From assembly GCA_021791275.1 (NCBI GenBank), contig JAJYWX010000028.1, positions 11,582-67,748 on the forward strand: DNA of 56,167 nucleotides. Reading direction: 5' to 3'. The DNA comes from a bacterium. GTDB lineage: Bacteria > Patescibacteriota > Dojkabacteria > JAKAPS01 > JAJZLI01. The position numbers and the translations under genes were made by a program. Numbering within the stretch: the stretch's first letter is position 1; every line of letters starts with the position of its first letter. Below, piece after piece: positions 661-54,800 of this stretch. A model generated the notes under the pieces. It was not told the DNA's origin. It made no database searches and saw only the letters and a list, made by a program, of their open reading frames with translations.

Positions 661-747
661 CGGAGAGGGTGGGATTCGAACCCACGAGGAGCTTTCACCC
701 CTGACAGTTTTCAAGACTGTTACCTTCAACCGCTCGGTCACCTCTCC
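661..747 (-). tRNA. tRNA-Ser (anticodon UGA), type II with long variable arm
   Basis: The reverse complement reads GGAGAGGTGACCGAGCGGTTGAAGG...ACAGT-CTTGAAA-ACTGT...GGGTTCGAATCCCACCCTCTCCG. The acceptor, D, anticodon and T arms pair, and the loop CTTGAAA gives anticodon TGA. Confidence 0.9.
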
Positions 748-805
748 TTATGAATGAAAGTTATTATACAAAATTAGTATCAGTAAATCTAGCAAAACCT
801 TTATT

Positions 806-893
806 CGGAGAGAGCAAGATTCGAACTTGCGATTCTTTATTAAAGAATACTGTTTTTCGAGAACAGCCTGATAAACCACTCCAGCATCTCTCC
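806..893 (-). tRNA. tRNA-Ser (anticodon CGA), type II with long variable arm
   Basis: The reverse complement reads GGAGAGATGCTGGAGTGGTT...CTGTT-CTCGAAA-AACAG, then the variable arm ATTCTTTAATAAAGAAT, then GCAAGTTCGAATCTTGCTCTCTCCG. Confidence 0.88.
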
Positions 894-903
894 CCCTTTA
901 TCA

Positions 904-977
904 TGCTTCTGATAGGATTCGAACCTATACTCTCCAGATCCGCAATCTGGTGCTTTATCCAATTAAGCTACAGAAGC
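904..977 (-). tRNA. tRNA-Arg (anticodon GCG)
   Basis: The reverse complement reads GCTTCTGTAGCTTAATTGGATAAAGCA-CCAGA-TTGCGGA-TCTGG-AGAGT-ATAGGTTCGAATCCTAT-CAGAAGCA. It forms a 74-nt cloverleaf with anticodon loop TTGCGGA. Confidence 0.85.
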
Positions 978-984
978 ATAATTA

Positions 985-4408: not shown

Positions 4409-5500
4409 ATGTATGAGTTAATACCATCAGAAAAGTATCTGGATGACCTTCTCTCATTTTCTAAAAAAGCAAAAGAGAGAATATATATACAGGCAATGCA
4501 TGTTGTTTTTAATGACAAGTTTTCTGAATTTATAAATGAGCTAATTTCGGCAAAGAAAAGAGGAGTTGATGTAAGACTAAATATTGATGATTACTCTAAA
4601 GTATATAATAATCTAGGCCATAGGTATTTGCATATATCAAAAAACAAATTATATAAATGCCAAAAAGATGCAAGCAGAAGTAGGTTTTATATAGATAAAT
4701 TATTAAGAGCAGGAGTAGACGTACTTTTTATTAATGAATATAAATATAACAAAAAATTGGCAGAATATATTCCTTTTTTAGGAAGGAATCATATGAAAAT
4801 TACAGTTATTGACGATATATCATATATAGGTGGTATAAATCTTTCGTCCAAATCTCTTAACTATATTGATTTTATGCTACGTACAAATGATAAATCATTG
4901 TTGGATGCACTAATAGATTTATTCTTTAAAAGTAGAAATAATATAAATTTTAATGATTATAAAATTAACTTAGAAGGAGGGGATACTCTCTTAGTAGATT
5001 CTGGGAAAACCTATAAATCGATAATATATGATACTGTTCTTAAAGAGATCTATAATTCAAAAGATTCTATATTGTACATATCGCAATTTCTCCCTGATTT
5101 TAAAATTTTAAAAGCTTTGAAATTTGTTCAATCAAGGGGAGTAGATGTAAATATAATAACTCATGCAAGTCATGTTTCTGAAAAAAAATATAGAACATTT
5201 GTTGAACATTCAATGTTTAATTTCTCTAACTTGAATATAAGGAATGTATATTTCAGTAAAGATAGGTATGTTCATGCTAAAATGGTAATAATTGATAAGG
5301 GTAAAGAGAGTGAAAGGGCAATATTTGGATCACATAATTTTTCTACATTTGGGGTACTTTTTGGAACTAAAGAGATATCACTTTTGACTAGGAACAAACA
5401 GGTTATAGATATGCTATATCTCTGGTATAATAGTATAAAGCCTGAAGACAATAAATTAGTTAAATACGCTACTCCAGCCCAATCGAGCAAACATATTTAG
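4409..5500 (+). CDS. phospholipase D superfamily protein (two HKD motifs; cardiolipin/phosphatidylserine synthase-like)
   Basis: HKD motif 1 is HMKITVIDDISYIGGINLS and HKD motif 2 is HAKMVIIDKGKESERAIFGSHNFS. Confidence 0.8.
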   Translation: MYELIPSEKYLDDLLSFSKKAKERIYIQAMHVVFNDKFSEFINELISAKKRGVDVRLNIDDYSKVYNNLGHRYLHISKNKLYKCQKDASRSRFYIDKLLRAGVDVLFINEYKYNKKLAEYIPFLGRNHMKITVIDDISYIGGINLSSKSLNYIDFMLRTNDKSLLDALIDLFFKSRNNINFNDYKINLEGGDTLLVDSGKTYKSIIYDTVLKEIYNSKDSILYISQFLPDFKILKALKFVQSRGVDVNIITHASHVSEKKYRTFVEHSMFNFSNLNIRNVYFSKDRYVHAKMVIIDKGKESERAIFGSHNFSTFGVLFGTKEISLLTRNKQVIDMLYLWYNSIKPEDNKLVKYATPAQSSKHI

Positions 5501-5530
5501 GTAGTTAGTATTTTCAGAAGATGATACTTT
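5239..5530 (+). repeat. Repeat X, copy 1 (native 3' end of the PLD gene plus about 30 bp downstream)
   Basis: The same sequence (aaggaatgtatatttcagtaaagataggtatgttcatgc...caaacatatttaggtagtta...) recurs at 8637-8928 and 10603-10862 with only scattered mismatches by eye. Confidence 0.9.
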
Positions 5531-5531
5531 G

Positions 5532-5663
5532 TATATTTAATATTTGGCTATTTGGTGGTATAATGTCCGGGTGAATAATTTTGAAGGTGAACAATTTTTG
5601 CACGGAATGGATAGTACACTGCATACCTCTGTACCGGTGGAACATAGCCAATCTCAAAGACCT
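5532..5663 (+). repeat. 132-bp leader repeat, copy A (promoter plus first codons of the LRR gene)
   Basis: tatatttaatatttggctatttggtggtataatgtccggg...caatctcaaagacct recurs at 9955-10086 with the same length. I saw one small difference, tttttg versus ttcctg. Confidence 0.9.
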
Positions 5664-8576
5664 CCAAGTGAAAGATCTCAGAGACCTAGGGAGAAGATAT
5701 CATCCTGGTTAAGAGTGATAGAAAGAACCCATGGACATGATGATCCAATAGTACAAGAAAGGATAAAAGCATCTTACCATAAAAGGTATGTGATAAAACC
5801 TGGAAACTTTCCAGATGCATATTTTACAAGACAACAAGAGAATGCAAGGAGACAGGGTCTGGGAGATATAGAGATTACGGAGGAGATGAGATCTGAGCAA
5901 ATAGGTATGGCAATAGAGAATCAGAAGAGATCTCTAGATATATGGATAGATTATCTTTTATCATCTGATTCTAGCTATATGCCTACATGGGTAAAATATT
6001 GGGTTTTTACTGGGATGGTAAAGTTAGGAGGATATGATAAAGAGAAGAGGGTTTTTCATCCTCGTAGGATACATACTGTATCAGCTTTTCCGGAATTAAA
6101 TAGAGAAGCTTTAGCTCTTGCAGTAGAACTGATACAAACAAAAGTAAGGGAGCCTGAGATACAAGGGGAGAGAGATAGGATTCTTGCAAGTTCTAATTTT
6201 GGTAAGTATTATGCATATGCGATAGATAAAGTAATACCTACAGGAGATAATAGTAATGAATTACTAAATACAGAAGGAGAATGGGTTAAATGGAAACAGG
6301 GATCTGATTATGGACAATTAGTAGATTCATTACGTGGTATGGGGACAGGATGGTGTACAGCAAATGATGTTGTAGCTAGGAAGCAATTAGAATCTGGAGA
6401 TTTTCATATTTACTATACAAAAGATAAAGAAGGACAATTAACAATGCCAAGGATAGCGATAAGGATGAAAGGGGGGCATATAGCTGAGATAAGAGGTATT
6501 GATAATGATCAGAATATTGATCCATATATTTTAGGTGTTTTAGATGAGAAGTTAGAAGAGTTTGGGGAGGAGGGGGAATTATACAAGGAGAAGGTATCTG
6601 ATATGAGATTGTTAACAAGTATATCTGATAAAGTAGACAATGGGGAGCCACTAAGTATAGAAGAGTTAAGGTTTCTATATGAGATTGATAGACAAATCAT
6701 TGGATTTGGATATGTTAAGGATCCGAGGATATTTGAGATAATAGAGAGGAGGAATATTAGAGAAGATTTGTCATTAATTTTTGGATGTAGGGAAGATCAG
6801 ATTAGTTTAACTGCTGAAGAAGCTATATCTGGAGATATTAGATACCACCATGGAGAACTTTATCTTGGTAATTTAGAATCTGCAGAGGGTTTACAATTAC
6901 CTGAAATTGTAGGAGGATCTCTTGATCTTAGAAATTTGATTTCTGCTGAGGGGGTACAATTACCTGAGAGTGTAGGAGGGGATCTTGATCTTGGTAATTT
7001 AGAATCTGCAGAGGGTTTACAATTACCTGAGAGTGTAGAAGGGGGACTTTATCTTAGTAGTTTAGAATCTGCAGAGGGTTTACAATTACCTGAGAGTGTA
7101 GGAGGGGGACTTTATTTTGGTAATTTGTCTTCTGCTAAGGGTTTACAATTACCTGAACGTGTAGTAGGGAATCTTGATTTTGGTAATTTAGAATCTGTAG
7201 AGGGTTTACAATTACCTGAAAGTGTAGGAGGGGGACTTTATTTTGGTAATTTGTCTTCTGCTAAGGGGTTACAATTACCTGAACATGTAGGAGGGAATCT
7301 TAGTCTTGGGAATTTAGAATCTGCAGAGGGGTTACAATTACCTGAACATGTAGGAGGAAATCTTGATCTTGGTAATTTAGAATCTGCAGAGGGGTTACAA
7401 TTACCTGAACATGTAGGAGGAAATCTTGATCTTGGTAGTTTAGAATCTGCAGAGGGGTTACAATTACCAGAAAGTGTAGTAGGGAATCTTGATCTTAGAC
7501 ATTTGCGTTCTGCTGAGGGGTTACAATTACCTGAACATGTAGGAGGAGATCTTGATCTTAGTAATTTGCGTTCTGCAGAGGGTTTGCGATTACCAGAAAG
7601 TGTAGGAGGGAATCTTAGTCTTGGGAATTTAGAATCTGCAGAGGGGTTACAATTACCAGAAAGTGTGGGATGGAATCTTGAGCTTTCTAATTTAGAATCT
7701 GCAGAAGGGTTACAATTACCTGAAATTGTAGGAGGGGAACTTAATCTTAGTAATTTGCGTTCTGCAGAGGGTTTGCGATTACCTGAAAGTGTAGGAGGGG
7801 GACTTGATCTTGGTAGTTTAGAATCTGCAGAGGGGTTACAATTACCTAAACATGTAGGGGGAGATCTTAATCTTGGTAATTTAGAATCTGCTGAGGGGTT
7901 ACAATTACCAGAACATGTAGTATGGAATCTTAATCTTGGGAATTTGCGTTCTGCTAAAGGGGTACGATTCCCCAAAAATGTGGGATGGAACCTTGGTCTT
8001 GGTAGTTTAGAATCTGCAGAAGGGGTACAATTACCCGAAAGTGTAGGAGGGGATCTTAATCTTAGTAATTTGCGTTCTGCTAAAGGGGCACGATTCCCTG
8101 GAAATGTAGGAGGAAATCTTAATCTTAGTCGTTTAGAATCTGCAGAAGGGTTACAATTACCTGAAATTGTAGGAGGGGCGCTTTATCTTAGTCGTTTAGA
8201 ATCTGCAGAGGGGGTACAATTACCAGAAAGTGTAGGATGGAATCTTGATCTTAGACATTTGCGTTCTGCTAAAGGGGTACGATTCCCTGGAAATGTAGGA
8301 GGAGATCTTAATCTTGATAATTTAGAATCTGCTGAGGGGGTACAATTACCAGAACATGTAGGATGGAATCTTGATCTTAGACATTTGCGTTCTGCTAAAG
8401 GGGCACGATTCCCTGGAAATGTAGGAGGAAATCTTAATCTTAGTCGTTTAGAATCTGCAGAAGGGTTACAATTACCAGAAAGTGTAGGAGGAAGTATTTA
8501 TCTTTTTAGTTTAAAATCTACTGAAGGATTAAATCTTCTAAGGATTGGGGAGGGCAAGTTTACATTGGTGAACTAA
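5544..8576 (+). CDS. LRR-A: repeat protein with an N-terminal domain of about 440 aa of unknown function, then 26 tandem 21-aa leucine-rich-type repeats and a C-terminal cap
   Basis: The track ORF starts at TTG 5544. If the TATAAT at 5559 is the promoter, ATG 5607 (MDSTLHTS...) is the likelier start. The repeat consensus is L-G-N-L-E-S-A-E-G-L-Q-L-P-E-x-V-G-G-N-L-D. No signal peptide is visible. Confidence 0.85.
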   Translation: MAIWWYNVRVNNFEGEQFLHGMDSTLHTSVPVEHSQSQRPPSERSQRPREKISSWLRVIERTHGHDDPIVQERIKASYHKRYVIKPGNFPDAYFTRQQENARRQGLGDIEITEEMRSEQIGMAIENQKRSLDIWIDYLLSSDSSYMPTWVKYWVFTGMVKLGGYDKEKRVFHPRRIHTVSAFPELNREALALAVELIQTKVREPEIQGERDRILASSNFGKYYAYAIDKVIPTGDNSNELLNTEGEWVKWKQGSDYGQLVDSLRGMGTGWCTANDVVARKQLESGDFHIYYTKDKEGQLTMPRIAIRMKGGHIAEIRGIDNDQNIDPYILGVLDEKLEEFGEEGELYKEKVSDMRLLTSISDKVDNGEPLSIEELRFLYEIDRQIIGFGYVKDPRIFEIIERRNIREDLSLIFGCREDQISLTAEEAISGDIRYHHGELYLGNLESAEGLQLPEIVGGSLDLRNLISAEGVQLPESVGGDLDLGNLESAEGLQLPESVEGGLYLSSLESAEGLQLPESVGGGLYFGNLSSAKGLQLPERVVGNLDFGNLESVEGLQLPESVGGGLYFGNLSSAKGLQLPEHVGGNLSLGNLESAEGLQLPEHVGGNLDLGNLESAEGLQLPEHVGGNLDLGSLESAEGLQLPESVVGNLDLRHLRSAEGLQLPEHVGGDLDLSNLRSAEGLRLPESVGGNLSLGNLESAEGLQLPESVGWNLELSNLESAEGLQLPEIVGGELNLSNLRSAEGLRLPESVGGGLDLGSLESAEGLQLPKHVGGDLNLGNLESAEGLQLPEHVVWNLNLGNLRSAKGVRFPKNVGWNLGLGSLESAEGVQLPESVGGDLNLSNLRSAKGARFPGNVGGNLNLSRLESAEGLQLPEIVGGALYLSRLESAEGVQLPESVGWNLDLRHLRSAKGVRFPGNVGGDLNLDNLESAEGVQLPEHVGWNLDLRHLRSAKGARFPGNVGGNLNLSRLESAEGLQLPESVGGSIYLFSLKSTEGLNLLRIGEGKFTLVN
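5556..5564 (+). promoter_or_regulatory. candidate extended -10 promoter element (TGgTATAAT) for the LRR gene
   Basis: A perfect TATAAT sits at 5559-5564 and is preceded by TGn. The -35 region is weak. The element is duplicated at 9979-9987 in front of the truncated copy. Confidence 0.4.
6864..8573 (+). repeat. Coding tandem array of 26 x 63 bp (6864-8501) plus a degenerate terminal unit (8502-8573)
   Basis: The period is exact: 6864 + 26x63 = 8502, which lands on the start of the cap unit (ctttttagtttaaaatct). Adjacent units 7311-7373 and 7374-7436 look identical. Confidence 0.95.
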
Positions 8577-8636
8577 GGTTATAGATTTATCACAATGGCA
8601 AAAAATTGCTGAAAAGATATTCTCTGTACTTATTAA

Positions 8637-8928
8637 AAGGAATGTATATTTCAGTAAAGATAGGTATGTTCATGCCAAAATGGTAATAATTGATAAGGGT
8701 AAAGGGAGTGAAAGAGCAATATTTGGATCACATAATTTTTCTACATTTGGGGTACTTTTTGGGACTAAAGAGATATCACTTTTAACTAGGAACAAACAGG
8801 TTATAGATATGCTATATCTCTGGTATAATAGTATAAAGCCTGAAGACAATAAATTAGTTAAATACGCTACTCCAGCCCAATCGAGCAAACATATTTAGGT
8901 AGTTAGCATTTTCAGAAGATGATATTTT
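8637..8928 (+). pseudogene. Repeat X, copy 2: detached 3' fragment of the PLD gene (encodes ...NVYFSKDRYVHAKMVIIDKGKGSERAIFGSHNFS...SSKHI*)
   Basis: It matches 5239-5530 over the full 292 bp. It has no upstream ATG in frame other than the internal Met of HAKM (track ORF 8680..8898). Confidence 0.8.
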
Positions 8929-9756
8929 CGCAGTATAGTATATAAAGGTAAAATATTTTCCCTGAGATATTTTTACTTCTATACTTGCAGCTCCAAGACC
9001 ATATTTTAAATAATAAATTACGTTATGGTATATTATAAGTCCATCAACTGTAAAAGGTATATATCCCCAAGAATTAAATTTTGAAATATAATAATTTAGT
9101 ATCTGAGTATCCGTAGGCTGGTTCACTTTATTTATTATTGCAATACCCTTTATCTCTTCTACCGGTATATTATATTGAGAGTGTATTACATTAAGATAAT
9201 TAGATTTAAAAAAATAAAATTGTGTACTTGTAATTTCAGGTACACTGCTAAATTGTAGAGATGAAAGAACATTTTTCATATCTGTGTAAGAGAAAGGATA
9301 TGGGGAAGCAACTTCTTTTGATATGAATAAAGATTGTACATCTTTTTCTATTTTTGAAGGTATAAATATTATCTCCTCAGTGGTATTTTTAACTTTTGCA
9401 TACTCTACGATACTGTTGTCTTTATTTAGTATTATATTATTTTCATTGATTTGGTAATTCCAATTTTTATGAATATAGTAAAGTAGTGTGGGAATTTCAA
9501 TTGAATTGAAATTTTTTTGAAGATATGTTTTTAATACTAATCCTTTTGCACTAGAGCTGACTTGCTCAGTTCCTTTAAGGGGTATATTCAGTGGATTATA
9601 TATTGCTACTATAGGAGTATAGTTTATTTTTGTGATGCTTTTCTGAGTATTTATTATTTGAGGAATTTTTATAGTTTTTGTAAATATTAGTGTCACTATT
9701 GCCAAATAGAGTATTATTATGAATGCAAAAAACAGAAATTTTTTTTTCTTTCTCAT
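8854..9756 (-). CDS. hypothetical membrane-anchored or secreted protein (300 aa)
   Basis: Complete ORF with N-terminal MRKKKKFLFFAFIIILYLAIVTLIF as a signal or anchor. The last roughly 25 codons (about 8854-8928) are encoded antisense inside repeat X copy 2. Confidence 0.6.
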   Translation of the reverse strand: MRKKKKFLFFAFIIILYLAIVTLIFTKTIKIPQIINTQKSITKINYTPIVAIYNPLNIPLKGTEQVSSSAKGLVLKTYLQKNFNSIEIPTLLYYIHKNWNYQINENNIILNKDNSIVEYAKVKNTTEEIIFIPSKIEKDVQSLFISKEVASPYPFSYTDMKNVLSSLQFSSVPEITSTQFYFFKSNYLNVIHSQYNIPVEEIKGIAIINKVNQPTDTQILNYYISKFNSWGYIPFTVDGLIIYHNVIYYLKYGLGAASIEVKISQGKYFTFIYYTAKISSSENANYLNMFARLGWSSVFN

Positions 9757-9823
9757 TATTATAGATATTATACATAAAAATCTTTTATATCAAAAGAAAC
9801 TTTGATATACTCTATTAAATTGA

Positions 9824-9911
9824 GGAGAGGTACCCAAGAGGCTGAAGGGGAGGGTTTGCTAAACCCTTAGGAGGAGAAATCCTCGCGAGAGTTCGAATCT
9901 CTCTCTCTCCG
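9824..9911 (+). tRNA. tRNA-Ser (anticodon GCU), type II
   Basis: GGAGAGGTACCCAAGAGGCTGAAGGGG-AGGGT-TTGCTAA-ACCCT, then the variable arm TAGGAGGAGAAATCCTCGC, then GAGAGTTCGAATCTCTCTCTCTCCG. Confidence 0.88.
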
Positions 9912-9954
9912 AATAAATATTTTTATATCTTTACCTTAATGTACTGACTCTCTA

Positions 9955-10086
9955 TATATTTAATATTTGGCTATTTGGTGGTATAATGTCCGGGTGAATA
10001 ATTTTGAAGGTGAACAATTCCTGCACGGAATGGATAGTACACTGCATACCTCTGTACCGGTGGAACATAGCCAATCTCAAAGACCT
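9955..10086 (+). repeat. 132-bp leader repeat, copy B
   Basis: Matches 5532-5663, including TGgTATAAT (9979-9987) and the ATG (10030) that corresponds to ATG 5607. Confidence 0.9.
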
Positions 10087-10543
10087 CGATCTTAATCATT
10101 TGCGTTCTGCTAAAGGGGTACGATTTCCCAAAAATGTGGGATGGAATCTTGATCTTGGCCGTTTAGAATCTGCAGATGGGGTACAATTACCAGAAAGTGT
10201 GGGATGGAATCTTGATCTTGGCCGTTTAGAATCTGCAAAAGGGGTACGATTCCCTGAACATGTAGGAGGAAGTATTTATCTTGGTAATTTAGAATCTGCT
10301 GAGGGGTTACAATTACCAGAACATGTAGGAAGGAATCTTGATCTTAGACATTTGCGTTCTGCTAAAGAGGTACGATTCCCTGGAAATGTAGGAGGAAATC
10401 TTAATCTTAGTCGTTTAGAATCTGCAGAGGGTTTACGATTCCCTGAACATGTAGGAGGAAGTATTTATCTTTTTAGTTTAAAATCTACTGAAGGATTAAA
10501 TCTTCTAAGGATTAGGAAGGGCGTGTTTGCATTGGTGAATTAA
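10004..10543 (+). pseudogene. LRR-B: truncated paralogue or possible silent cassette (leader fused directly to 6 x 63-bp LRR units plus cap; N-terminal domain absent)
   Basis: LRR units run 10091-10468 with the cap at 10469-10540. In the frame used by LRR-A (TTG 9967 / ATG 10030), translation stops at TAA 10093-10095. The LRR frame is reachable only from TTG 10004, which is the track ORF. Confidence 0.55.
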
Positions 10544-10602
10544 GGTTATAGATTTATCAAAATGGTAAAAAATTGCTGAAAAGATATTCTCTGTACTTAT
10601 TA

Positions 10603-10862
10603 AAAGGAATGTATATTTCAGTAAAGATAGGTATGTTCATGCCAAAATGGTAATAATTGATAAGGGGAAAGAGAGTGAAAGGGCAATATTTGGATCACAT
10701 AATTTTTCTACATTTGGGGTACTTTTTGGAACTAAAGAGATATCACTTTTAACTAGGAACAAACAGGTTATAGATATGCTATATCTCTGGTATAATAGTA
10801 TAAAGCCTGAAGACAATAAATTAGTTAAATACTCTACTCCAACCCAATCGAGCAAACATATT
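10603..10862 (+). pseudogene. Repeat X, copy 3: detached 3' fragment of the PLD gene
   Basis: Matches 5239-5498. It encodes ...HAKMVIIDKGKESERAIFGSHNFS...YSTPTQSSKHI and diverges immediately after caaacatatt. Confidence 0.8.
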
Positions 10863-11047
10863 ATTGTATATATTTTGAAATTGATGAGGTTTTTTGGTAA
10901 AATGCGTGAGATATGTCTGATATAATTAATATGTTAACTGATGTTTTAGTAAGTTTTCTTACTTGCGGTACTGCCATGGTGGTCCTCTTTATTGCCATAG
11001 CAATTACTCTTTCGATTTTTGTACATGCACATATACATTTATAAGAT

Positions 11048-11521: not shown

Positions 11522-12085
11522 TTGATATATAATATACATAAAATGATATTCAATATAGAAGGTATACCCATTAGTTATTCTGTTAATTATTCTAGAAGAT
11601 CAAAGAGTATAAAAATTTCAATTTATAAGGACAATACTTTAAGAGTAACAGTTCCTAAATATAGGAGGAATATTAGTATCGAGAAAGTATTATTAGAGAA
11701 GAAGGATTGGATTTTATCTGCAATTTCAGAAAATAAAAATGTAATAAAAATAGAAGACGTTAAAGATTACGATCTTTTTAAAAAGGACTATTTAAAGTAT
11801 ATAAAAAAGAGGGTAGACTACTACAATACATTCTATAATCTTGAATATAAGAATATTAGTATACGTCGTTCAAAGACTAGGTGGGGTAGCTGTTCTGTAA
11901 AGAATAATTTGAATTTTAACTATAAAATATACTATCTCCCCCAACCTCTTTCAGATTATGTCATAGTACATGAGATTTGCCATTTAATGGAGTTTAATCA
12001 TTCTAAAAATTTTTGGAATTTAGTTGAAAAAACAATTCCAGACTATAAAGAAATTAAAAAGAGATTAAAGGGCTATTCTCTTTAG
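11522..12085 (+). CDS. YgjP/DUF45-type (M48-like) metal-dependent hydrolase
   Basis: HEICHLMEFNHSKNFW is the HExxH...NHS..FW signature of the YgjP/DUF45 family. The track start is TTG 11522, but ATG 11543 (MIFNIEG...) is the more likely start. Confidence 0.7.
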   Translation: MIYNIHKMIFNIEGIPISYSVNYSRRSKSIKISIYKDNTLRVTVPKYRRNISIEKVLLEKKDWILSAISENKNVIKIEDVKDYDLFKKDYLKYIKKRVDYYNTFYNLEYKNISIRRSKTRWGSCSVKNNLNFNYKIYYLPQPLSDYVIVHEICHLMEFNHSKNFWNLVEKTIPDYKEIKKRLKGYSL

Positions 12086-12153
12086 TGTAAAAATGTTATA
12101 TAATAAGGCAAAGATAAGGACTACAAAAATTCTGTCCATATTGTATATTGTAT

Positions 12154-12182
12154 TTGCAATATGTTCTGTTTATTTGTATAAT
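12154..12182 (+). promoter_or_regulatory. candidate sigma-70 promoter of the tuf/ribosomal-protein operon
   Basis: TTGCAA (12154-12159), a 17-nt spacer, then TATAAT (12177-12182) preceded by TG. It lies about 30 nt upstream of the tuf ATG. Confidence 0.5.
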
Positions 12183-12212
12183 TCTTTTGTTTAATTTAGT
12201 TTATTTGAATAT

Positions 12213-13412
12213 ATGGCATCTTTTGATAGAACAAAACCACACAAAAATGTTGGAACAATAGGTCATGTTGACCATGGTAAAACAACATTAACAGCAGCAA
12301 TACTTAAGGTTCTTGGCGCAGCAGGGTTTGCAGCACAAAATAAGGACGTTAATAATCTTGATAGTGCTCCAGAAGAAAAAGCAAGAGGGGTTACTATTGC
12401 TACAGCTCATACTGAGTATGAGACTCAAAATTTTCACTATGCACATGTAGATTGTCCTGGACACGCAGATTATGTAAAAAATATGATTACAGGTGCAGCT
12501 CAAATGGATGGCGCAATCTTGGTTGTAGCAGCTACTGATGGCCCTATGCCTCAAACTCGAGAGCACATACTTTTAGCAAGACAAGTAGGTGTTCCTAAAA
12601 TTGTTGTATTTTTAAATAAAATAGATCAAGTTGATGATCCTGAGCTTGTTGATTTAGTCGAATTGGAGGTAAGAGAACTTTTGACTAAATATGAATTTAA
12701 TGGTGATGAGACTCCTATAATAAGGGGTAGTGCACTTAAGGCTTTGGAGCATGCTTGTGGTAAAGAAGATTGCGAGTGGTGTGGCCCTATATTGAAATTA
12801 ATGCAAAATGTAGATGACTACATTCCTATTCCAGAAAGAGAAGTAGATAAACCATTTTTGATGCCAGTTGAAGATGTATTTTCAATTGAAGGAAGAGGTA
12901 CAGTTGCAACAGGTAGGGTTGAAAGAGGTACTCTTAAATCAGGTGAAGAGATTGAGATTATAGGGCTTAGGGATGATATTAGAAAAACTGTAGTTACTGG
13001 AATTGAAATGTTTAATAAATCTCTAGATTCAGCTCAGGCTGGTGATAACGTAGGATTGCTTTTAAGAGGGTTAAAAAGAGAAGAAATTCAAAGAGGAGAA
13101 GTTGTTGCTAAACCTGGTAGTGTTACTCCTCATACAGAATTCGAAAGTGAGGTTTATATATTGAATAAGGAAGAAGGTGGAAGACATTCACAATTTGTAT
13201 CTGGTTATAGACCTCAATTCTATATCAGAACAACAGATGTTACTGGTGAGATTCAACTTCCAGATGGTGTTGAGTGTGCCTTACCGGGAGATAACTTAAA
13301 GATGAATGTAAGATTGATTACTCCTGTAGCATTAGAAGAAGGTTTGAGGTTTGCTATAAGAGAGGGAGGTAGAACTGTTGGTGCTGGAGTAATAACTAAG
13401 ATAGTTAAGTAA
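12213..13412 (+). CDS. tuf: elongation factor Tu
   Basis: [18 protein letters not shown] and NKID G-motifs; collinear with EF-Tu along the full length. Confidence 0.98.
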
Positions 13413-21998: not shown

Positions 21999-22502
21999 AT
22001 GGCAGATCAAAAAGTAAGTAAAAAAGAAGAGATTTTAGAAAATATTTTAGTTGAAGATTTTCCTAAAGAGGAAGAATTTGAGCATTATATACTTGAAACA
22101 TCAAGAGTAACAAAGGTTACAAAGGGTGCAAAAAGATTCAGATTTTCTGCTATGGTAGTTGTTGGAAATAGAAATGGTAAAGTAGGAATAGGAAAAGGAG
22201 TTGGTTCAGATCCTAAATCTGCTATTGAGAAAGCTATTAGAAGAGCTAAAGACTCTGTTATTAAAATAAATATTACAGACAATACTATTACTCATGAGAT
22301 TACCCAAGATTTTAAAGCATCAAAACTTATGTTTAAACCAGCTGTAGCAGGTACTGGTATAATAGCTGGAAAAAGCATTAAACCAATTTTAGAATTATCA
22401 GGTATTAAGGATATACTTTCAAAAAGAATAGGTACTTCTAATAAGAAATCTAATATATATTGTTGCTTTTTAGCTTTACAAAATTTAAAATCAAGGAATT
22501 AA
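21999..22502 (+). CDS. rpsE: 30S ribosomal protein S5
   Basis: [33 protein letters not shown]... Confidence 0.94.
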
Positions 22503-22503
22503 T

Positions 22504-22932
22504 ATGATTATAAAATCAAAAGTAACAACAAAAAAGAAAAAAATTATAGGGAGAGGTATTGGTTCTGGAAAGGGAGGGCATACTTCTACCAGAGGGACAA
22601 AAGGTCAAAAGAGTAGATCTGGATCTCATATCTCTAAATACTTCGAAGGTGGACAAAATCCTTTGATAAGGAGAGTCCCATATCTTAGAGGATTTAAAAG
22701 AATAAAAGAGCCTGTAGATATAATAAATTTATCTACTATAGATAAATATTTTGCAAAAGAAGATGAAATAAATCTAGAAAATCTTTTGAAAAGAGGTTTT
22801 GTTAAAAGGAAAAAAGTAAAGATATTATCAGATGGAGAAATTACTAAGGAATTTAAAATAAAAAAAGAAGATTTTATTTTTTCTCAAAAATCTTTAGATA
22901 AGATAGAAAAATCTAAAGCAAAGTTTATATAA
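22504..22932 (+). CDS. rplO: 50S ribosomal protein L15
   Basis: [25 protein letters not shown]. It starts 1 nt after the rpsE stop. Confidence 0.93.
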
Positions 22933-45800: not shown

Positions 45801-45829
45801 TTGACAAAAGATTAAATATTATCTATATT
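45801..45829 (+). promoter_or_regulatory. candidate sigma-70 promoter of the giant gene
   Basis: A perfect TTGACA (45801-45806), a 17-nt spacer, then TATATT (45824-45829). The ATG at 45843 would leave only a very short 5' UTR. Confidence 0.45.
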
Positions 45830-45842
45830 TATAGGTAATATT

Positions 45843-48800
45843 ATGCATAATTTAAGAAGGTTTTTATCAATCTTAGCTTTTAGTGCTTTATCTCTTTTTT
45901 TGTTTTCTTTTGGGGGAAAGATTTATGCCGCCCCTGCTTCACTTTTGAATTATCAAGGAAGACTTGAAAATGCTCAAGGGGATCTTTTGACTGGAAATTA
46001 CTATATAGCTTTTTGTATATATAACTCAACCACTGCGACTGCTTGTGCTCCAGGATCTACTCCAACCCCAGGAGCAATGAGTACTGCAGGGACATCTTCT
46101 GGAACATTGAATGGAGCTTTGTGGGGAGAAGTACAGTACTTTTCAAATACTAATACTCCTTCAAATGAGATATCAAATGGAGTTTTCAATGCTCAATTAG
46201 GAGAGTACTCTCCAATAACAGGATCTTTATTTCAAGGCAGTAGTAACTACTATATCGGATTTAATGTTTACAATGGAACTGGCTGGGATGGTCAGATGAC
46301 TCCACTTCAACCTATAGATCAGGTGGCCTACGCTATGAATAGTGCTCTTCTTCAGGGTTTTTCTCCTTCTCAGACACCTGGAGCTAATCAAGTGGTTGTA
46401 ACTAATGGAAGTGGTGATATAACATTGGGTGCTACTAATCCTCAAATTAATGCAACGGGTACAAATTCTTTAACTCTTAATGGAGGAGGTGGTACTGGAA
46501 ATATACAATTTTTTAATTCTTCAAATTATATAAACTCATCTGGGGATTTAAATCTGTTAGGTGGGGGTACATTTGGCGGAAATATAACTTTGACTGGAGT
46601 AAATCCTCAAGTAGATGCAACGGGAAGTAACGATTTAATCTTAAACAATGGATCTACGGGAGATGTATGTTTTAATACGTGTTCAAATTATGTTACATCT
46701 TCTGGAAATATAACTCTAGTAGGAACTGGTGTAAATAATATAAATGGAAATACTATACTTACAGAAGCGGATCTTAATATATCTGGCTTATATCAGGTAA
46801 CGGGTCTTGTAGTAGTATCAACAGCTCAGACGGGAGGAACTATTGCAGCTGGAACATATTATTATCAAGTAGTTGCACAGAATTCTTCAGGGGTATCATT
46901 CCCATCTCAAGAGATATCTGTAAGTTTACCTCCAATATCTTCTCCTACAGGATTAACAGCAACAGTAGGGACATCGGGTACAGTAGGATCAGATTTGGCA
47001 GCATCAACAACATACTATTATGAGGTAACAGCAACAACACCAAACGGAGAGACTACACCATCAGCACAGGTATCGGCAGTGGAGGGAACAACTGCATATC
47101 CCATAACACTTACATGGAGTGCAGTTGCAGGAGCAACAGGGTATAACATATATAAAGGTACTGTGTCGGGGTCGGATTACTTTTTAGCATCTGTTGGGAG
47201 TACTAGTTCTAGTTATACAGATTCGGGATCAGTAGCAACAACTAGCACAACACCACCTAGTACTAATACAGCAACGACAAATACCAATACAATTAGTCTT
47301 TCTTGGAATACTGATGTTGGGGCAACTTCTTATATTATTTATAGATCTTCAGATTCTGATTTTTCTCCGTCATACTCACAGACAACTACATCTACAACTT
47401 TTACAGATACAGGAGGAGGAGTAGTAGTTACATCTCCTGAGACTGCTTCCTCAATAGCTCAAACTGGTGGTGGGAATTTAAATTTATCTAATAATGAGAC
47501 ACTTGGGGGTGGATCTCTATCTTTGAATAATAGTTCAGGAAATATTATTAATTCAAATTCGTCATTAGGTATAGATGTTGGTAGTTCTGCTGCAAATATT
47601 GGAGATTTGCAAAGTACAACAGCTCTTCCTGGTGGAGGAACTGGGTCAGTTAAGATTGTATATAACGGATATATGTACAATATCTCAGGAAACCATGGTA
47701 ATTGTGGATCATATTGTGAAGAGGAGAATGTTTATTATGCTCAAATTCAGTCAAATGGTTCTGTTGGCACTTGGGAAAATACTACACCATATCCGATATA
47801 TGTAGAAAACCTAAGTGCAGTTGAGTATGGTGGATATATTTATGCATATGGAGGATTAATGAGTGGAGTCTCATCTACAAATGCTGTGTATTCAGCAAAA
47901 ATCAACTCTGATGGCACTTTAGGGCAATGGGTCCAACAAAACTCCCTTCCAGGATCTTTATCATCTGCTGTATATTTTGAATATAACGGATATATATATG
48001 ATATAGCTGGGTCTATAAATGGTATAGATCATAATTCTCAGGGTTATTATGCACAAATAGTTTCTGGTGGTGTATTGGGAAATTGGAAAACCCTTACAGC
48101 AAATAGTCCTGTTGATGCGAATCAAGGTTTTGAGTATAGAGGTTATGCATATGTGTCAGCCGGAACTAATGTTTATTATGGACAAATACTTAGCAATGGA
48201 GATATACAATCTTGGACAGTTACTACTTCTTTACCTTCAAATAGTTCCTCAGTTTGGCTAGGTGATTATGGGGGATATGCATATTCTTTATCTCAGAATA
48301 ATTCTCCTTCCTATTATTCACAAATACAACCTAACGGTAGCTTAGGTAGTTGGAATGAACTTTCAATAACACTTCCTTATGTTAATGGAGAATTTGGATA
48401 TCAAAACGCACTTTTTTCAAATGGATATATTTATGTGGTTGGTATTGGGGGAATAAATAATCTTTCATACGCACCTGTAGGTAATAGTAATATTAATATT
48501 GGAAATTCTCTATCTTTATCTTCAAGCGGTGATATCATATCTTCAGGCAATGGTAGTTTTTCAGGCGGGTCTTTAAATCTTTCTAATACATCTTCAAATA
48601 ATATAAATTCTAGCTCACCTTTAAATATATCAACATATAATACCAATCCTTCTCTGCAAAGTTGGAATCCTACGAGTTTACTACCTGCAGCAGTAAGTGG
48701 AGGAGGGAGTGTAGAGTATGGAGGATATGTATATGATATAGGAGGAGAGACAGGAAGATCAGCAGTATCAAGTGTGTATTATGCCCAGATACAAAGTGGA

Positions 48801-51800
48801 GGAGGACTGGGTACATGGAATAGTACGACATCACTACCTACAGCAGAGAGTGGAATAAGTGTAGTAGAGAGTGGAGGATATATATATGTAATAGGAGGAA
48901 ATGATGGTATTGGAGATGTAAATTCTGTATATTATTCCCAGATACAAAGTGGAGGAGGATTAGGATCATGGAATAGTACGACATTACTACCTAATAGTGT
49001 AGAGAATGTAGGGAGTGTAGAGTATGGAGGTAATATATATATATTAGGAGGAAATAACGGTACGAGTTATACAGGAGATGTATATTATGCGCCGATAAAT
49101 GGTAATGGATCATTAGGAGGTTGGACATCTACGACAGCACTACCTGTGAGTATGTCTGGGGTAGGAGTAGTAGAGTATGGAGGATATATATATGTAGTAG
49201 GAGGGTACAACGGTAGTGTAAATGAGAGTAGTGTATATTCGTCACAGATTGGAAGTAATGGAGTATTGGGATCATGGGAGAGTACGACATCATTACCTAC
49301 ACAGGTATCAGGAGAGGCAGTTACATCATATGGAGGTAATTTATATGTTGCTGGTGTGGGATCTTCAAATGTATATTTTGCAACTTTCAATACAGATGGA
49401 ACAATATCTAATTTTAGCATTACAAGTTCTCTTCCATCTTCTTATTCTGGAGGTAGTATTTTTGAAAATGATGGATATATGTACTATTTGGGAGAAGGAA
49501 ATGTTTCTTCTGCTGCAGTATCAAATGCTGATTTATCTGGTAATAATAACACACTTACACAGACATCTGTTTCAGTATCTAACTCCTCTCCTATAACAGG
49601 ATCAGATAGTTCAGCATACTTTAATGGACAGAATTCATATATGGTCCCTCCTAATAATCTAAATAACCAGTCCATATCAACAGTATCTACAGTATCATTG
49701 TGGTTTAAGACTACATCAGATGGAGGATTATGGGGAACATCAAATAGTGCACCATTTAACTCTAGTAGTAGCTATACACCAGCTCTATATGTAGGGACTA
49801 CGGGACTTTTGCAAGGTTTGTATTACAATGGAGGTACGAATACAATAAACTCATCATCCCCTGTCAATAATGGAGTCTGGCATAACGCTGTTATAGTGGC
49901 TGATGGTAATACTCAGTCAATTTATTTGGATGGTTCATTAGTTGGAACGGCATCAGGAGTAAATGCACAGAATGACCCATATGAGACTTTAGGCATTGTA
50001 GATGCTAATGGTTGGCCTAATAGCTTTAATTCAAATAATGGGTGGTTTCCTTTTAATGGAGATATAGCAGATGTATCACTATTTAATACGGCATTAACCT
50101 CATCTCAGATAAGTAGCCTTTATTCAGATACCACATCTCAGAGTACGTATAACTCTGGTGTATTATCTTTATCTCCTGTAGGTTTTTGGGAACTTTCAAA
50201 AGATAAAGGAACTAATGTCTATTATTCACAGATTGGAAATGGAGTTAATATTGGAAGTAATAATCAAAATAATATATCTTTAAATACAGTTGGAGATATT
50301 ACTCTTAATAATGCAGGTCTTATATCTGCAGGTGGAGAGACTATAAATGGTAATCTAAATGTGGTGGGAATCTCTACTCCTACTGGATTACAGCTATCAT
50401 CATCAGTTATAGGAGGTAATCTAACTCCAGGTACTTACGGTTACCAGGTAGTAGCAGTAGGAGCTCAAGGAGAAAGTTTAGCTACCCAATCGATACAGGT
50501 ATCTACATCTGCTATCTCTTCGCCTACAGGATTAACAGCAACAGTAGGGACATCGGGTACAGTAGGAGCAGATTTAGCTGCATCCACAACATACTATTAT
50601 GAAGTAACGGCAACAACACCAAACGGAGAGACTACACCATCAGCTCAGGTATCAGCAGTAGAGGGAACAACCGCATATCCAATAACACTTACATGGAGTG
50701 CAGTGTCAGGAGCGACAGGGTATAACATATATAAGGGAACTACATCTGGGTCGGATTACTTTTTAGCATCAGTTACTAGTACGAGTTATACTGATTCGGG
50801 ATCAGTAGCGACAACGAGTACAACCCCACCTAGCAGTGATACAGCGACGACGAATACGAATAGTATATCTGTAGCATGGAATCCTGTAGAGAATGCGATA
50901 GGGTATAAGGTATACAGGGAGAATTTGACTAGTTTTGCTATTAATAGTACATCTGATCTGAATCCACCTGTAGGACTTACTGCTACATTAACAACTACTG
51001 CATCATCAGGATCAGATTTAGCTGCATCAACAACATATTATTATGAAGTGACAGGAATATCTGCCAGTTCTAATGGGGAGACCACAGTTTCAAATCAGGC
51101 ATCTGTAACTGAGGGTACAACTGCATACCAGGTGAGTCTTTCTTGGTATTCAGATGGAGCCAATAGTTATCGTATATATAAATCTACTACGTCTGGAGGG
51201 GAAGGTTATCTTGCTCAAGTCTCTAGTACAGTTTGTGTTAATGGAGTCTGTACATTTACAGATACAGGATCTGATCCAATTGAACAAAATATAACATATT
51301 GGGATAATACTACTTCATTACCTAATGCAATAAGTAATGAGATATCATTAGAATATGGAGGATATGCATATATAATTGGTGGAGGATCATCTTCTACATA
51401 TTATGCACCAATCAATTCGAATGGGACAATAGGTACGTGGACGAGTACTACACCTTTTCCAGTTACGGGGCAGAATTATGGTACTGGTGTTGAATACAAT
51501 GGTTATATTTATGTATTGGGAGGCTCTAACAGCAGTGCAGGACAGTCGAATAATGTTTATTATGCACCGATCAATACAAATGGGACAATAGGTACATGGA
51601 CAGCTACAACAGTATTGCCGTATTCAGTTCAGAGTATATCTGCAGTGGAATATGGTGGGTATATGTATATATTTGGGGGGTTAAATGGGAATTTCCAAAC
51701 GAGTAGTGTATATTCATCTTTGATAGGTTCTACTGGGGCTTTAGGTTCTTGGAGTGCAGAGACATCGTTACCTGTTACCTTGGGATATTCTACTGCATTT

Positions 51801-54800
51801 GAGAATAATGGTTATGTATATATGTTTGGAGGTGGAAATGTTGAGAATTGTTGTGGTATTGATTCTGCTGTATCTACGGTATATTATGCGCAGTTAGGCA
51901 GTGGGGGTACATTAGGAATGTGGCAGTCAGCAACATCGTTACCAACCTCATTATGGTTAGCATCGTCATTTGAGTATAATGGATATGCATATGTAGTTGG
52001 TGGACAGAATAATCCTAATTTTGGTGCTGGTAGTGTAAATACAGTATATTATGCTGCGATAAATACAAACGGTACACTGGGTGAATGGTATACAGATTCG
52101 GCTTATTTGCCAGAGGATATTGGATCTGCAGGAGCATTTGAATACAATGGATATGCATATGTATTTGGGGGAAGTAATAATGGTACAAGTTATAATAATG
52201 TCTTGTATTGGGCAATATCATCGGTTGCTCAAATACAAAATTATGTCCAAACGTCTATTCCTTCTGGTACAGATACCTCTGTAAGTGTTGAGTATAATGG
52301 ATACTTATATGAGGTTGGAGGGTATACCTCCTCTGGGGAAACTGCTAATGTATATTATGCACCGATCAATACAAATGGGACAATAGGTACATGGACAGCT
52401 ACAACATCACTCCCTGTGAGTTTACACTACTCTACAGGAGTAGCATATAATGGATACATATATACATTCGGAGGGTATAGTAATTCAGCGGGCAATTCTA
52501 TAAGTACAGTCTATTATGCACCAATCAATTCGAATGGGACTATAGGTGTATGGTCTACAACAACGGCTCTCCCCTATGCAGATTATGAATTGTCTTCTGT
52601 TGAATATGATGGATATGTATATATCTTGGGGGGAAATGAGGCTAATGTTGGAACAGTAGCAGGGGTCTATTATGCACCGATCAATACAAATGGGACAATA
52701 GGTACATGGACAGCAACTACATCTCTGTCTCAAAATATACAATGGGCTACAAGTGTTGAATATAATGGGTATATATATGAAATAGGTGGAAGTAACAATG
52801 GTAATGCAGATTTATCAGCAGTTTATTATGATACAATAAGTACAACAGGTGGATTAGGTTCTACATGGACGGTAACCACATCCCTCCCTCAAAATATAGA
52901 TAATTCTGTGAGTGTTGCATATAACGGGTATATATATGAAATAGGGGGGTATAATGGAAGTTCATATTTAAGCATAATTTATTATTCTCAAATACAAACT
53001 AACGGAACATTGGGATCTTGGAATCCAGAAGTATCATTTTTACCTCAGGGAGGTATAGATGGTGCATCTGGAGTAGAATATGGAGGGAGTTTGTTTTATA
53101 TAGGAGGATATAATGGATCTTATCTGTCAGAAGTTTATTCTTGGCCAATTAACAATTATTATGTAACAAGTCCTTTTGGAATAAATGATTCCGCAACTAA
53201 TTTACCTGAAAGTATCTACGAGGCCTCTTCTGTGACATATAATGGGTATATATATGAGATAGGAGGGCAAGATGGTAATGGGAATAATCTTGTCTTTTAT
53301 TCCAAAATTAAATCTAATGGAGGTATATCAGGGTGGAATCAAACCACCCCTTTACCTCAAGGAATATATCAAGCTAAAGCTATAGTTTATGGAGGATATA
53401 TATATGAAATGGGGGGGTGTGGTAGTGCAGGTGATTGTGCTACAAACCTAATATATTATTCGCAAATTCAAAATGATGGAACCCTAGGCACATGGAACAC
53501 TTCTTCTACCTCTTTGCCTTTAAGTATAACTCACTTTATGTTGGTGGAATATAACGGGTACGTATATATAATGGGAGGAAATAATGGTGGGACAATATAT
53601 TCATCTATATATTATAGTGAGATACAAGGTGCAGGAGAATTCTCACAATGGCAATCAGCTATATCCCTTCCCTCTGGTATAAATATGAGATCTGCTGCTG
53701 TAGAATACAATGGTTATATATATTTGATGGGGGGAGATAACGGTAGTACAATAGTAAATAATGTATATTATACGCAGATACAAAATGGAGGATCATTGGG
53801 AAGTTGGAATTCAACAACATCTTTACCCCAATCAATTGATAGGAATACAGCAGTAGCTTATAATGGATATATATTTGAAATCGGAGGTTATAATGGGAAC
53901 TATACTTCAAATGTGTATTATTCAGAAATTCAATCGGATGGGTCATTAGGTAGTTGGGGACAAAGTGCTTCTCTTCCTACTGCAGAGGATCATATGGCGA
54001 GTGTTGAAAGTGGTGGTTATGTATATGTATTAGGGGGATATAATGGGTCATCTGCTTTAAATAGTGTTTATTCTTTTGAACTAATTCCATATTCTTATAA
54101 TATATCATCTGGGATGCAAACAAGCTTTTTTGATAGTGGAGGGAGTACATATAAGTTGGAATCTCCTACAACAATAACCCCCAGCGGAGGTACTGGTATA
54201 TTTAATGGAAATTTAATTGCAGATTCGGGATTGCAAACGGATTCTAGTGCACAACTTTGTGCAAGTTCTTGTAACACCGGACTTTCAACCTTGGATAATA
54301 ATTTCTACTTAATCAATGATACTTCTCCAAGTGGAAATTTCATTTTCAAGGCAGATTCTTATAATGGGATAAATTCTGGTAATAATATAACATATTGGGA
54401 TAATACTACTTCATTACCTAATGCAATAAGTAATGAGATATCATTAGAATATGGAGGATATGCATATATAATTGGTGGAGGATCATCTTCTACATATTAT
54501 GCACCAATCAATTCGAATGGGACAATAGGTACGTGGACGAGTACTACACCTTTTCCAGTTACGGGGCAGAATTATGGTACTGGTGTTGAATACAATGGTT
54601 ATATTTATGTATTGGGAGGCTCTAACAGCAGTGCAGGACAGTCGAATAATGTTTATTATGCACCGATCAATACAAATGGGACAATAGGTACATGGACAGC
54701 TACAACAGTATTGCCGTATTCAGTTCAGAGTATATCTGCAGTGGAATATGGTGGGTATATGTATATATTTGGGGGGTTAAATGGGAATTTCCAAACGAGT

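Follow-up and report, generated by a model that had tools for sequence, protein, structure and literature searches.

The window analysed here, 56,167 nucleotides of contig JAJYWX010000028.1 (assembly GCA_021791275.1), carries a gene for a large two-part protein in which a conserved N-terminal domain (N-domain) is followed by a long array of 21-residue repeats. A truncated paralogue, termed gene B, lies ~1.4 kb downstream of the full gene (Table 1). The start of the full gene at a GTG agrees with the N-termini of homologues (consensus MxxxxGEQFL) and with public gene calls, and the identical 1001-aa product is encoded on the European Nucleotide Archive (ENA) contig ERZ27237044 k141_477094. The alternative TTG start at 5544, taken by the program that listed the open reading frames (ORFs), would give a product of 1010 aa (5544..8576, +).

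Tandem Repeats Finder reports a period of 63 with 26.4 copies over 6858-8519 (matches 78%, score 1667), and the in-phase translation that begins at 6864 comprises 26 units, each of 21 aa, up to 8501. Since L4, S6, G9, P13 and V16 are invariant across all the in-phase units, the array is free of indels. A degenerate 27th unit (8502-8564) and three further codons precede the stop codon at 8574-8576. The array is old and diverged rather than recently amplified, since the mean nucleotide identity between units is only ~78% (a difference of ~22%). Exact repeats do occur within it: 7374-7436 duplicates 7311-7373 base for base, and the longest exact repeat in the array, of 94 nt and starting at 8068, recurs 5 units (315 bp) away. 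Among the 26 units, entropy is maximal at position 21 (2.14 bits), the top six positions being 21, 19, 15, 2, 3 and 5, and variation is moderate (0.6-1.1 bits) at positions 8, 10-12, 14, 17 and 18. In the 3' third, E-type units, which are acidic (-2 to -5 each), alternate with four full units of a basic R type (18, 20, 23 and 25; net charge +3 to +4), and the array as a whole has a net charge of about -46 over 27 units. A first-pass annotation, made from the letters alone, had described 26 phased 63-bp units without indels, the identical pair and the two unit types interleaved towards the 3' end, and on all these points it was right, the degenerate 27th unit being the addition. Its list of variable positions holds for 2, 3, 5, 15 and 19 but omitted 21, the most variable of all, and overrated 8, 10-12, 17 and 18; its choice of H as the consensus residue 15 was wrong, as S is the majority (11 units vs 7 with H). 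A 245-aa minus-strand ORF at 7238-7975, itself repetitive, is almost certainly no gene but an open frame that the repeat creates.

Table 1. Features of the repeat gene, its truncated paralogue and the duplicated sequence around them (window coordinates).
Feature	Position	Strand	Remarks
Promoter-like site	5537..5564	+	TTAATA, 16 nt, TG-extended TATAAT; ends 7 nt 5' of the GTG; duplicated at 9960-9987
Whole gene	5571..8576	+	1001 aa from GTG 5571
N-terminal domain, conserved, ~420 aa, alpha/beta	5571..6803	+	502 homologues; AlphaFold2 pLDDT 85.5
Linker and degenerate half-unit cap (…GDIRYHHGELY) before unit 1	6804..6863	+	beta strands at aa 434-435 and 439-440
26 in-phase 63-bp / 21-aa units	6864..8501	+	consensus LGNLESAEGLQLPESVGGNLD
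57-nt exact direct repeat, copy 1	7286..7342	+	
Twin units 8 and 9 (1 mismatch)	7305..7430	+	one absent from 26-unit alleles
57-nt exact direct repeat, copy 2	7601..7657	+	
Alternation zone, basic R-type units (18, 20, 23, 25) vs acidic E-type units	7935..8438	+	
Degenerate 27th unit, then LVN and stop	8502..8576	+	LFSLKSTEGLNLLRIGEGKFT
Copy of 3' end of upstream PLD gene	8620..8928	+	96% identical to 5222-5530
tRNA-Ser (GCT)	9824..9911	+	structural breakpoint at 9916
Promoter-like site and first 31 codons, copied	9955..10087	+	98.5% identical to 5532-5664; out of frame with the units
Gene B	10088..10543	+	seven intact in-phase units without indels, plus tail; truncated paralogue without N-domain
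Further PLD-tail copy	10587-10862		follows the gene B array

The full protein was modelled with AlphaFold2 from an alignment of 101 homologues, giving a mean predicted local distance difference test (pLDDT) score of 85.7, with the repeats at 82-95. The repeat region is modelled as an all-beta coil without helices, in which beta ladders recur at positions 15-16 and 20-21 in 26 of 26 units, at position 11 in 22 and at position 6 in 19, so that a regular beta-solenoid is predicted. On either side of the L20-x-L1 strand lie the hypervariable residues 19, 21, 2 and 3; in leucine-rich repeats (LRRs), residues placed in this way are the exposed ones of the concave face. Among the 26 units, nonsynonymous diversity (pN) is 0.011 and its ratio to synonymous diversity (pN/pS) 0.03 at seven scaffold positions, against a pN of 0.418 and a pN/pS of 1.77 at the six most variable positions, a contrast that is partly circular because the positions were binned by amino-acid variability; the constraint on the scaffold is robust despite this binning. 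Synonymous diversity is alike everywhere in the array (pS 0.24-0.31). Across the family (2,890 units of 379 proteins), the entropy within proteins is again greatest at 19, 21, 2 and 3. Both the solenoid and the conserved scaffold with a variable face had been anticipated by the first-pass annotation, and the model and the diversity data agree with it.

The further proposal that the units are of LRR type is only loosely supported, and the unit is best described as only LRR-like. A length of 21 aa falls in the LRR range of 20-30 residues, and the unit, which reads V16-G-G-x-L20-x-L1-x-x-L4-x-S6-A-E-G-L10-x-L12-P13, has both an LxL strand and an LP pair. However, the LxxLxLxxN/CxL segment is absent: the unit departs from it at the first Leu, at the Asn/Cys and in the distance to the following Leu. 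In the window protein Pfam finds no LRR family, and among 71 relatives LRR_14 matches 6, all below threshold; the NCBIfam SlrP model reaches 26.1 bits where its cut-off is 1113 (SlrP by phmmer, E 0.93), and Foldseek returns no LRR. The best match of a six-unit profile among PDB sequences is the LRR of a plant NLR (E 0.002, with insertions). One family member, P0338, has the same N-domain as the window protein followed by canonical LRRs (LDLxxSQITSLPEGLTYVGGN), whose E-values against solved LRRs are 5e-12 to 7e-11; the profile of the window-type unit aligns with P0338 at an hhalign probability of 67.5% (E 5e-5, 24 columns with gaps). The array resembles the short LRRs (20-22 residues) of IpaH, SlrP, SspH1 and YopM in its period of 21, in the L-P pair followed by a hydrophobic residue, in the LxL strand with hypervariable residues beside it, and in a coil predicted to be all-beta without helices. 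It differs from them in lacking an asparagine ladder (x-L-x-L-x-x-L-x-S-A-E-G-L-x-L-P), and the four beta-ladder positions of its coil suggest a more closed cross-section. Pentapeptide repeats, made of A(D/N)LXX units with 20 residues per coil against 21 here and no Pfam Pentapeptide match in the window protein, are similar only to the G-N-L-D-L / G-N-L-E-S half of the unit. The LRR-like unit of 21 residues defined by the analysis escapes current LRR models.

Alleles of different length were found by exact-protein look-up and compared unit by unit at the nucleotide level. The assemblies that carry them have flanks 99.8-99.9% identical, and all the alleles are in frame. The 27-unit form is present in the window and in ERZ27237044 k141_477094, which is identical to the window over 4661-9916 and differs by 8 single-nucleotide polymorphisms (SNPs) upstream. 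The 26-unit form (GCA_027425375.1, ERZ27237183 and, truncated, ERZ27237285) has lost one of the twin units 8/9. The 22-unit form (ERZ27237177) has lost units 8-12 by a clean 315-bp deletion between the two 57-nt repeats. The 17-unit form (GCA_027339905.1) combines the same 315-bp deletion, shared by these two public alleles, with a mosaic 3' part in which units B5-B7 equal those of gene B exactly, B8 has one mismatch, and near-copies of A18 and A22 are found. The first-pass annotation had called this DNA prone to unequal recombination, and the in-frame series of 27, 26, 22 and 17 units, with a deletion bounded by a 57-nt exact repeat, shows this directly.

The first 440 aa of the protein had 502 homologues in the first search (top identity 55%), all of them 'hypothetical' and none with a Pfam domain. 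Cys271 (in a G-T-G-W-C motif), R174, R303, E315 and Q323 are invariant (numbering from TTG 5544). The N-domain has no match in Pfam, NCBIfam, PADLOC or PHROGs; matches to Barstar, Glutaredoxin2_C, HNH_5 and BrxB in these collections were sub-threshold and were rejected as repeat-driven noise. GNAT chains retrieved by Foldseek from the PDB with the N-domain or the full model had probabilities of 0.1-0.16 and are not trusted. In BFVD, an uncharacterised phage protein is remotely similar to the N-domain model (E 1.9e-6), and seven PcfJ-like phage proteins rank below it (probability 0.13-0.63, five at 0.51-0.63), PcfJ-like proteins being known from phages and conjugative plasmids; however, neither the window protein nor 71 relatives have a PcfJ (PF14284) sequence match at E<=1, and the TM-scores are low. 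Searching phage and plasmid collections with the N-domain by tblastn gave no match. No signal peptide was seen on the window protein by visual check.

A profile search of 1.84 billion representatives placed 3,061 clusters (50% identity) in the family at E<=1e-3, of which 1,521 also pass E<=1e-30. This family of ~3,000 clusters has no Pfam or NCBIfam model. Among the GTDB species representatives there are 327 loci, mostly in Patescibacteria lineages, with a minority labelled Nanoarchaeota, Bacilli/Tenericutes, Melainabacteria and Bdellovibrionales; matches to the repeat include Nanopusillaceae and Aenigmatarchaeota, DPANN archaea being a minority beside the Patescibacteria. The N-domain is present in 238 of the 239 proteins from the N-domain and repeat searches, and in all but one of the best repeat matches, and the repeat is essentially confined to this family. 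Spacings of 21 residues account for 1,790 of the ~2,050 unit spacings, the number of units per member runs from 2 to ~20, and the family consensus, with K at position 11, is much less acidic than the window array. More distant members end in degenerate repeats, BspA-type LRR, TPR or other modules.

Clustering of the neighbours of 80 family loci yielded a reverse transcriptase (RT; Pfam RVT_1, E 1e-20 to 1e-24) as the sole recurrent partner, and no other conserved operon partner. The RT is found at 11 of 21 loci with a non-repeat C-terminus vs none of 31 repeat-bearing loci (Fisher p = 6e-6), and every RT-linked locus carries the alternative, non-repeat C-terminal domain. At four loci (L024, L058, L059 and L074) the last ~140 nt of the gene, the variable repeat (VR), pair with a nearby template repeat (TR), and the mismatches lie at template adenines in 18 of 21, 15 of 15, 15 of 16 and 19 of 19 cases. 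The alternative C-terminal domain is thus a confirmed target of diversity-generating retroelements (DGRs), and the proteins whose C-termini are DGR variable regions have their N-domain in common with the window protein (40-55% identity). A profile of the DGR-type C-terminal domain has no match among PDB sequences. At one locus (L061), two DGR-type members lie in tandem (6016-7899 and 9122-11005) with identical tails (last 70 aa compared) and an RT at 11858-12874; a single RT may serve both targets.

Candidate Phyla Radiation (CPR) DGR targets have been reported without recognisable domains (Roux et al., 2021; PMC8144416). The N-domain relatives resemble the CPR clade-2 targets of that study in their extreme C-terminal VR, adjacent RT and adenine-specific mismatches, and equally in the absence of a transmembrane segment or known domain. 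The locus ties these orphan targets to a much larger family, most members of which have a solenoid in place of the DGR domain. Unlike DGR variable proteins, the window gene has no VR, TR or RT, and its C-terminal array is varied by recombination. Three family-linked RTs found nothing below E 0.9 in the 56-kb window by tblastn, and the sole paralogous pair (8139-8895 vs 10106-10862), with 58 differences, has a symmetric spectrum and no adenine bias; DGR action on the window array was rejected on these two results. That the DGR rewrites the C-terminus in the relatives shows this end to be the one under pressure to vary in the family, and a single N-domain is combined with two ways of varying the C-terminus, recombination and DGR.

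On the strength of this pattern, it is rather probable that the array is a recombination-diversified, LRR-like solenoid which serves the conserved N-domain, a putative effector domain, as a binding or recognition module. The protein would consist of two modules, a 27-coil LRR-like beta-solenoid being attached to the C-terminus of the 420-aa N-domain. Residues L4, S6, A7, G9, P13, V16 and L20, together with L1, L10 and L12, would form the core of each coil, and residues 19, 21, 2 and 3 (with 5 and 15) an exposed, fast-changing surface, making the solenoid most likely the part that recognises a partner. Unequal homologous exchange between units would add or remove whole units, and patches would probably be swapped with the truncated, non-translatable paralogue downstream. 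The data show the anatomy of the repeats, the solenoid prediction, the selection pattern, the length alleles and the link of relatives to DGRs. We infer ligand binding by the variable surface, and likewise the identity of the ligand, the cellular location and the activity of the N-domain.

Several points weigh against this proposal, beside the circularity of the binning mentioned above. The length alleles all come from short-read assemblies, and the mosaic of the 17-unit allele may be a real gene conversion or a chimeric path. The array is identical in two samples and so is not hypermutable on short time scales. The curvature and the exposed face are read from the sequence pattern and DSSP only. 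Foldseek found no significant match and no LRR in the PDB for the full model (best E 3.7), and all PDB matches of the N-domain and full models lay at E 0.9 or above.

A more elaborate scheme takes in the duplicated surroundings of the gene. Gene B starts with a copy of the promoter-like site and of the first 31 codons of the full gene, but its frame from GTG 9994 stops after 33 codons; an alternative start at TTG 10004 would give a 179-aa repeat-only product. The segments 8139-8895 and 10106-10862 are 92% identical. The last ~300 nt of the PLD-family gene at 4409-5500 exist in three copies (96% identical), one of them after each array, and these tails mark a segmental duplication of a unit made of PLD tail and repeat gene. 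Short PLD-tail ORFs, such as 10647-10925, have been left behind. Past 9916, GCA_027339905.1 has unrelated sequence with a NUDIX-like protein in place of gene B. The locus could be a cassette-type variation system, in which the expressed gene receives segments by gene conversion from the promoter-bearing but untranslatable gene B (9955-10543) and recognition units are reshuffled among strains in number as well as in identity; across the family, recombination and DGR would be interchangeable means of diversifying the recognition end of one and the same effector or sensor, possibly an intracellular one, in episymbiotic bacteria and archaea. Cassette or repeat-number variation is known from the lamprey variable lymphocyte receptors (VLRs), assembled from LRR cassettes, from pilE/pilS of Neisseria and from the repeat-length variants of Mycoplasma. 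The window locus resembles these systems in its modular units with a variable face, in the in-frame gain and loss of units, and in a nearby non-translatable partial copy together with one mosaic allele whose units are identical to that copy. It differs in that no recombinase or programmed mechanism has been identified and no export signal is evident, and its variation is confined, as observed, to differences between strains or samples, the mosaic coming from a single assembly. As a whole, the cassette scheme is unlikely.

The promoter-like site itself is the top-scoring one within 5300-10700 (10 of 12 matches plus the TG), as a consensus match only. Its TG-extended -10 element (TGGTATAAT, window 5556-5573), only 7 nt from the GTG, would make the transcript leaderless or nearly so; on another reading, the ribosome-binding site is the GGTGG immediately upstream, with the promoter located elsewhere.

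If the solenoid were a rigid stalk determining how far the N-domain reaches, the number of units would matter and the variable residues would be unconstrained surface. The whole-unit differences between alleles, the spread of unit numbers in the family and the lack of a known ligand fit such a spacer. However, the variability sits in one strand-flanking cluster and is not spread over all exposed positions, paralogous members have in place of the array a domain diversified by DGR, of a type known to bind ligands, and still others use TPR or canonical LRR modules, and we therefore give the spacer little credence.

An improbable alternative is that the unit count and the differences between assemblies are artefacts of short-read mis-assembly. 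Many family contigs do end in or near the array, public contigs of this locus end at 8865 and 9916, one of them exactly at 9916, and the single assembly with the 17-unit allele tiles onto the window by overlaps of only 15-57 nt. However, the 27-unit array recurs, identical in nucleotide sequence, in an independent MEGAHIT contig with 8 flank SNPs, the 26-unit form is found in three assemblies, and the 26- and 22-unit alleles each arise by a clean deletion that keeps the frame and is bounded by exact repeats. The ENA contigs come from graphs with k=141, as their names imply, and since 141 exceeds the 94 nt of the longest exact intra-array repeat, their junctions should be read-supported. Least credible of all is an acidic mimic of DNA, in the manner of pentapeptide-repeat or anti-restriction proteins and with a mobile-element-type N-domain, for although the array is strongly negative (about -46) owing to its E-type units, the beta ladders are spaced at ~5 residues (6, 11, 16 and 21) and the fold of the N-domain weakly resembles that of phage PcfJ-like proteins, Pfam reports no pentapeptide match, the family consensus with K at position 11 is far less acidic, phage and plasmid collections hold no homologues, and hypervariable positions would be unexpected.

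For the favoured reading, a recognition module diversified by recombination, the natural series of 27, 26, 22 and 17 units in near-isogenic strains makes recognition by the variable end testable, and equally the view that repeat recombination and retroelement mutagenesis are alternative solutions to one selective problem. CPR bacteria and DPANN archaea depend on cell contact, and the proteins that mediate or police it are little characterised. An uncultivated and probably ultra-small organism, the host of the window is probably a CPR bacterium, because of the taxonomy of the family, the arrangement of ribosomal protein genes and the relatives of EF-Tu. The nearest named relatives of its EF-Tu, at only 75% identity, are metagenome-assembled genomes of Patescibacteria and Firmicutes. 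The S5 gene ends at 22502 and L15 starts at 22504 (21999-22932, +), leaving no L30 gene between them, which is consistent with CPR/Patescibacteria; absence of L30 is a reported CPR trait.

Between the full gene and gene B, a minus-strand ORF (8854-9756) encodes 300 aa with an N-terminal hydrophobic anchor and has no match in Pfam, NCBIfam, PADLOC or PHROGs. The reverse strand of the middle PLD-tail copy codes for its C-terminus, and every strain assembly keeps the ORF beside the repeat gene. Three clustered tRNA genes (Ser-TGA, Ser-CGA and Arg-GCG; 661-978, minus strand) lie upstream of a P-type ATPase gene. Giant repeat proteins are common in ultra-small bacteria, and at 45816-56167 (+) the window has an ORF of at least 3,450 codons, running past the window end, which contains many Kelch-type beta-propeller repeats by Pfam and matches the KLHDC2/KLHL20 Kelch domain (E 9e-66), NANM and Kelch_1.

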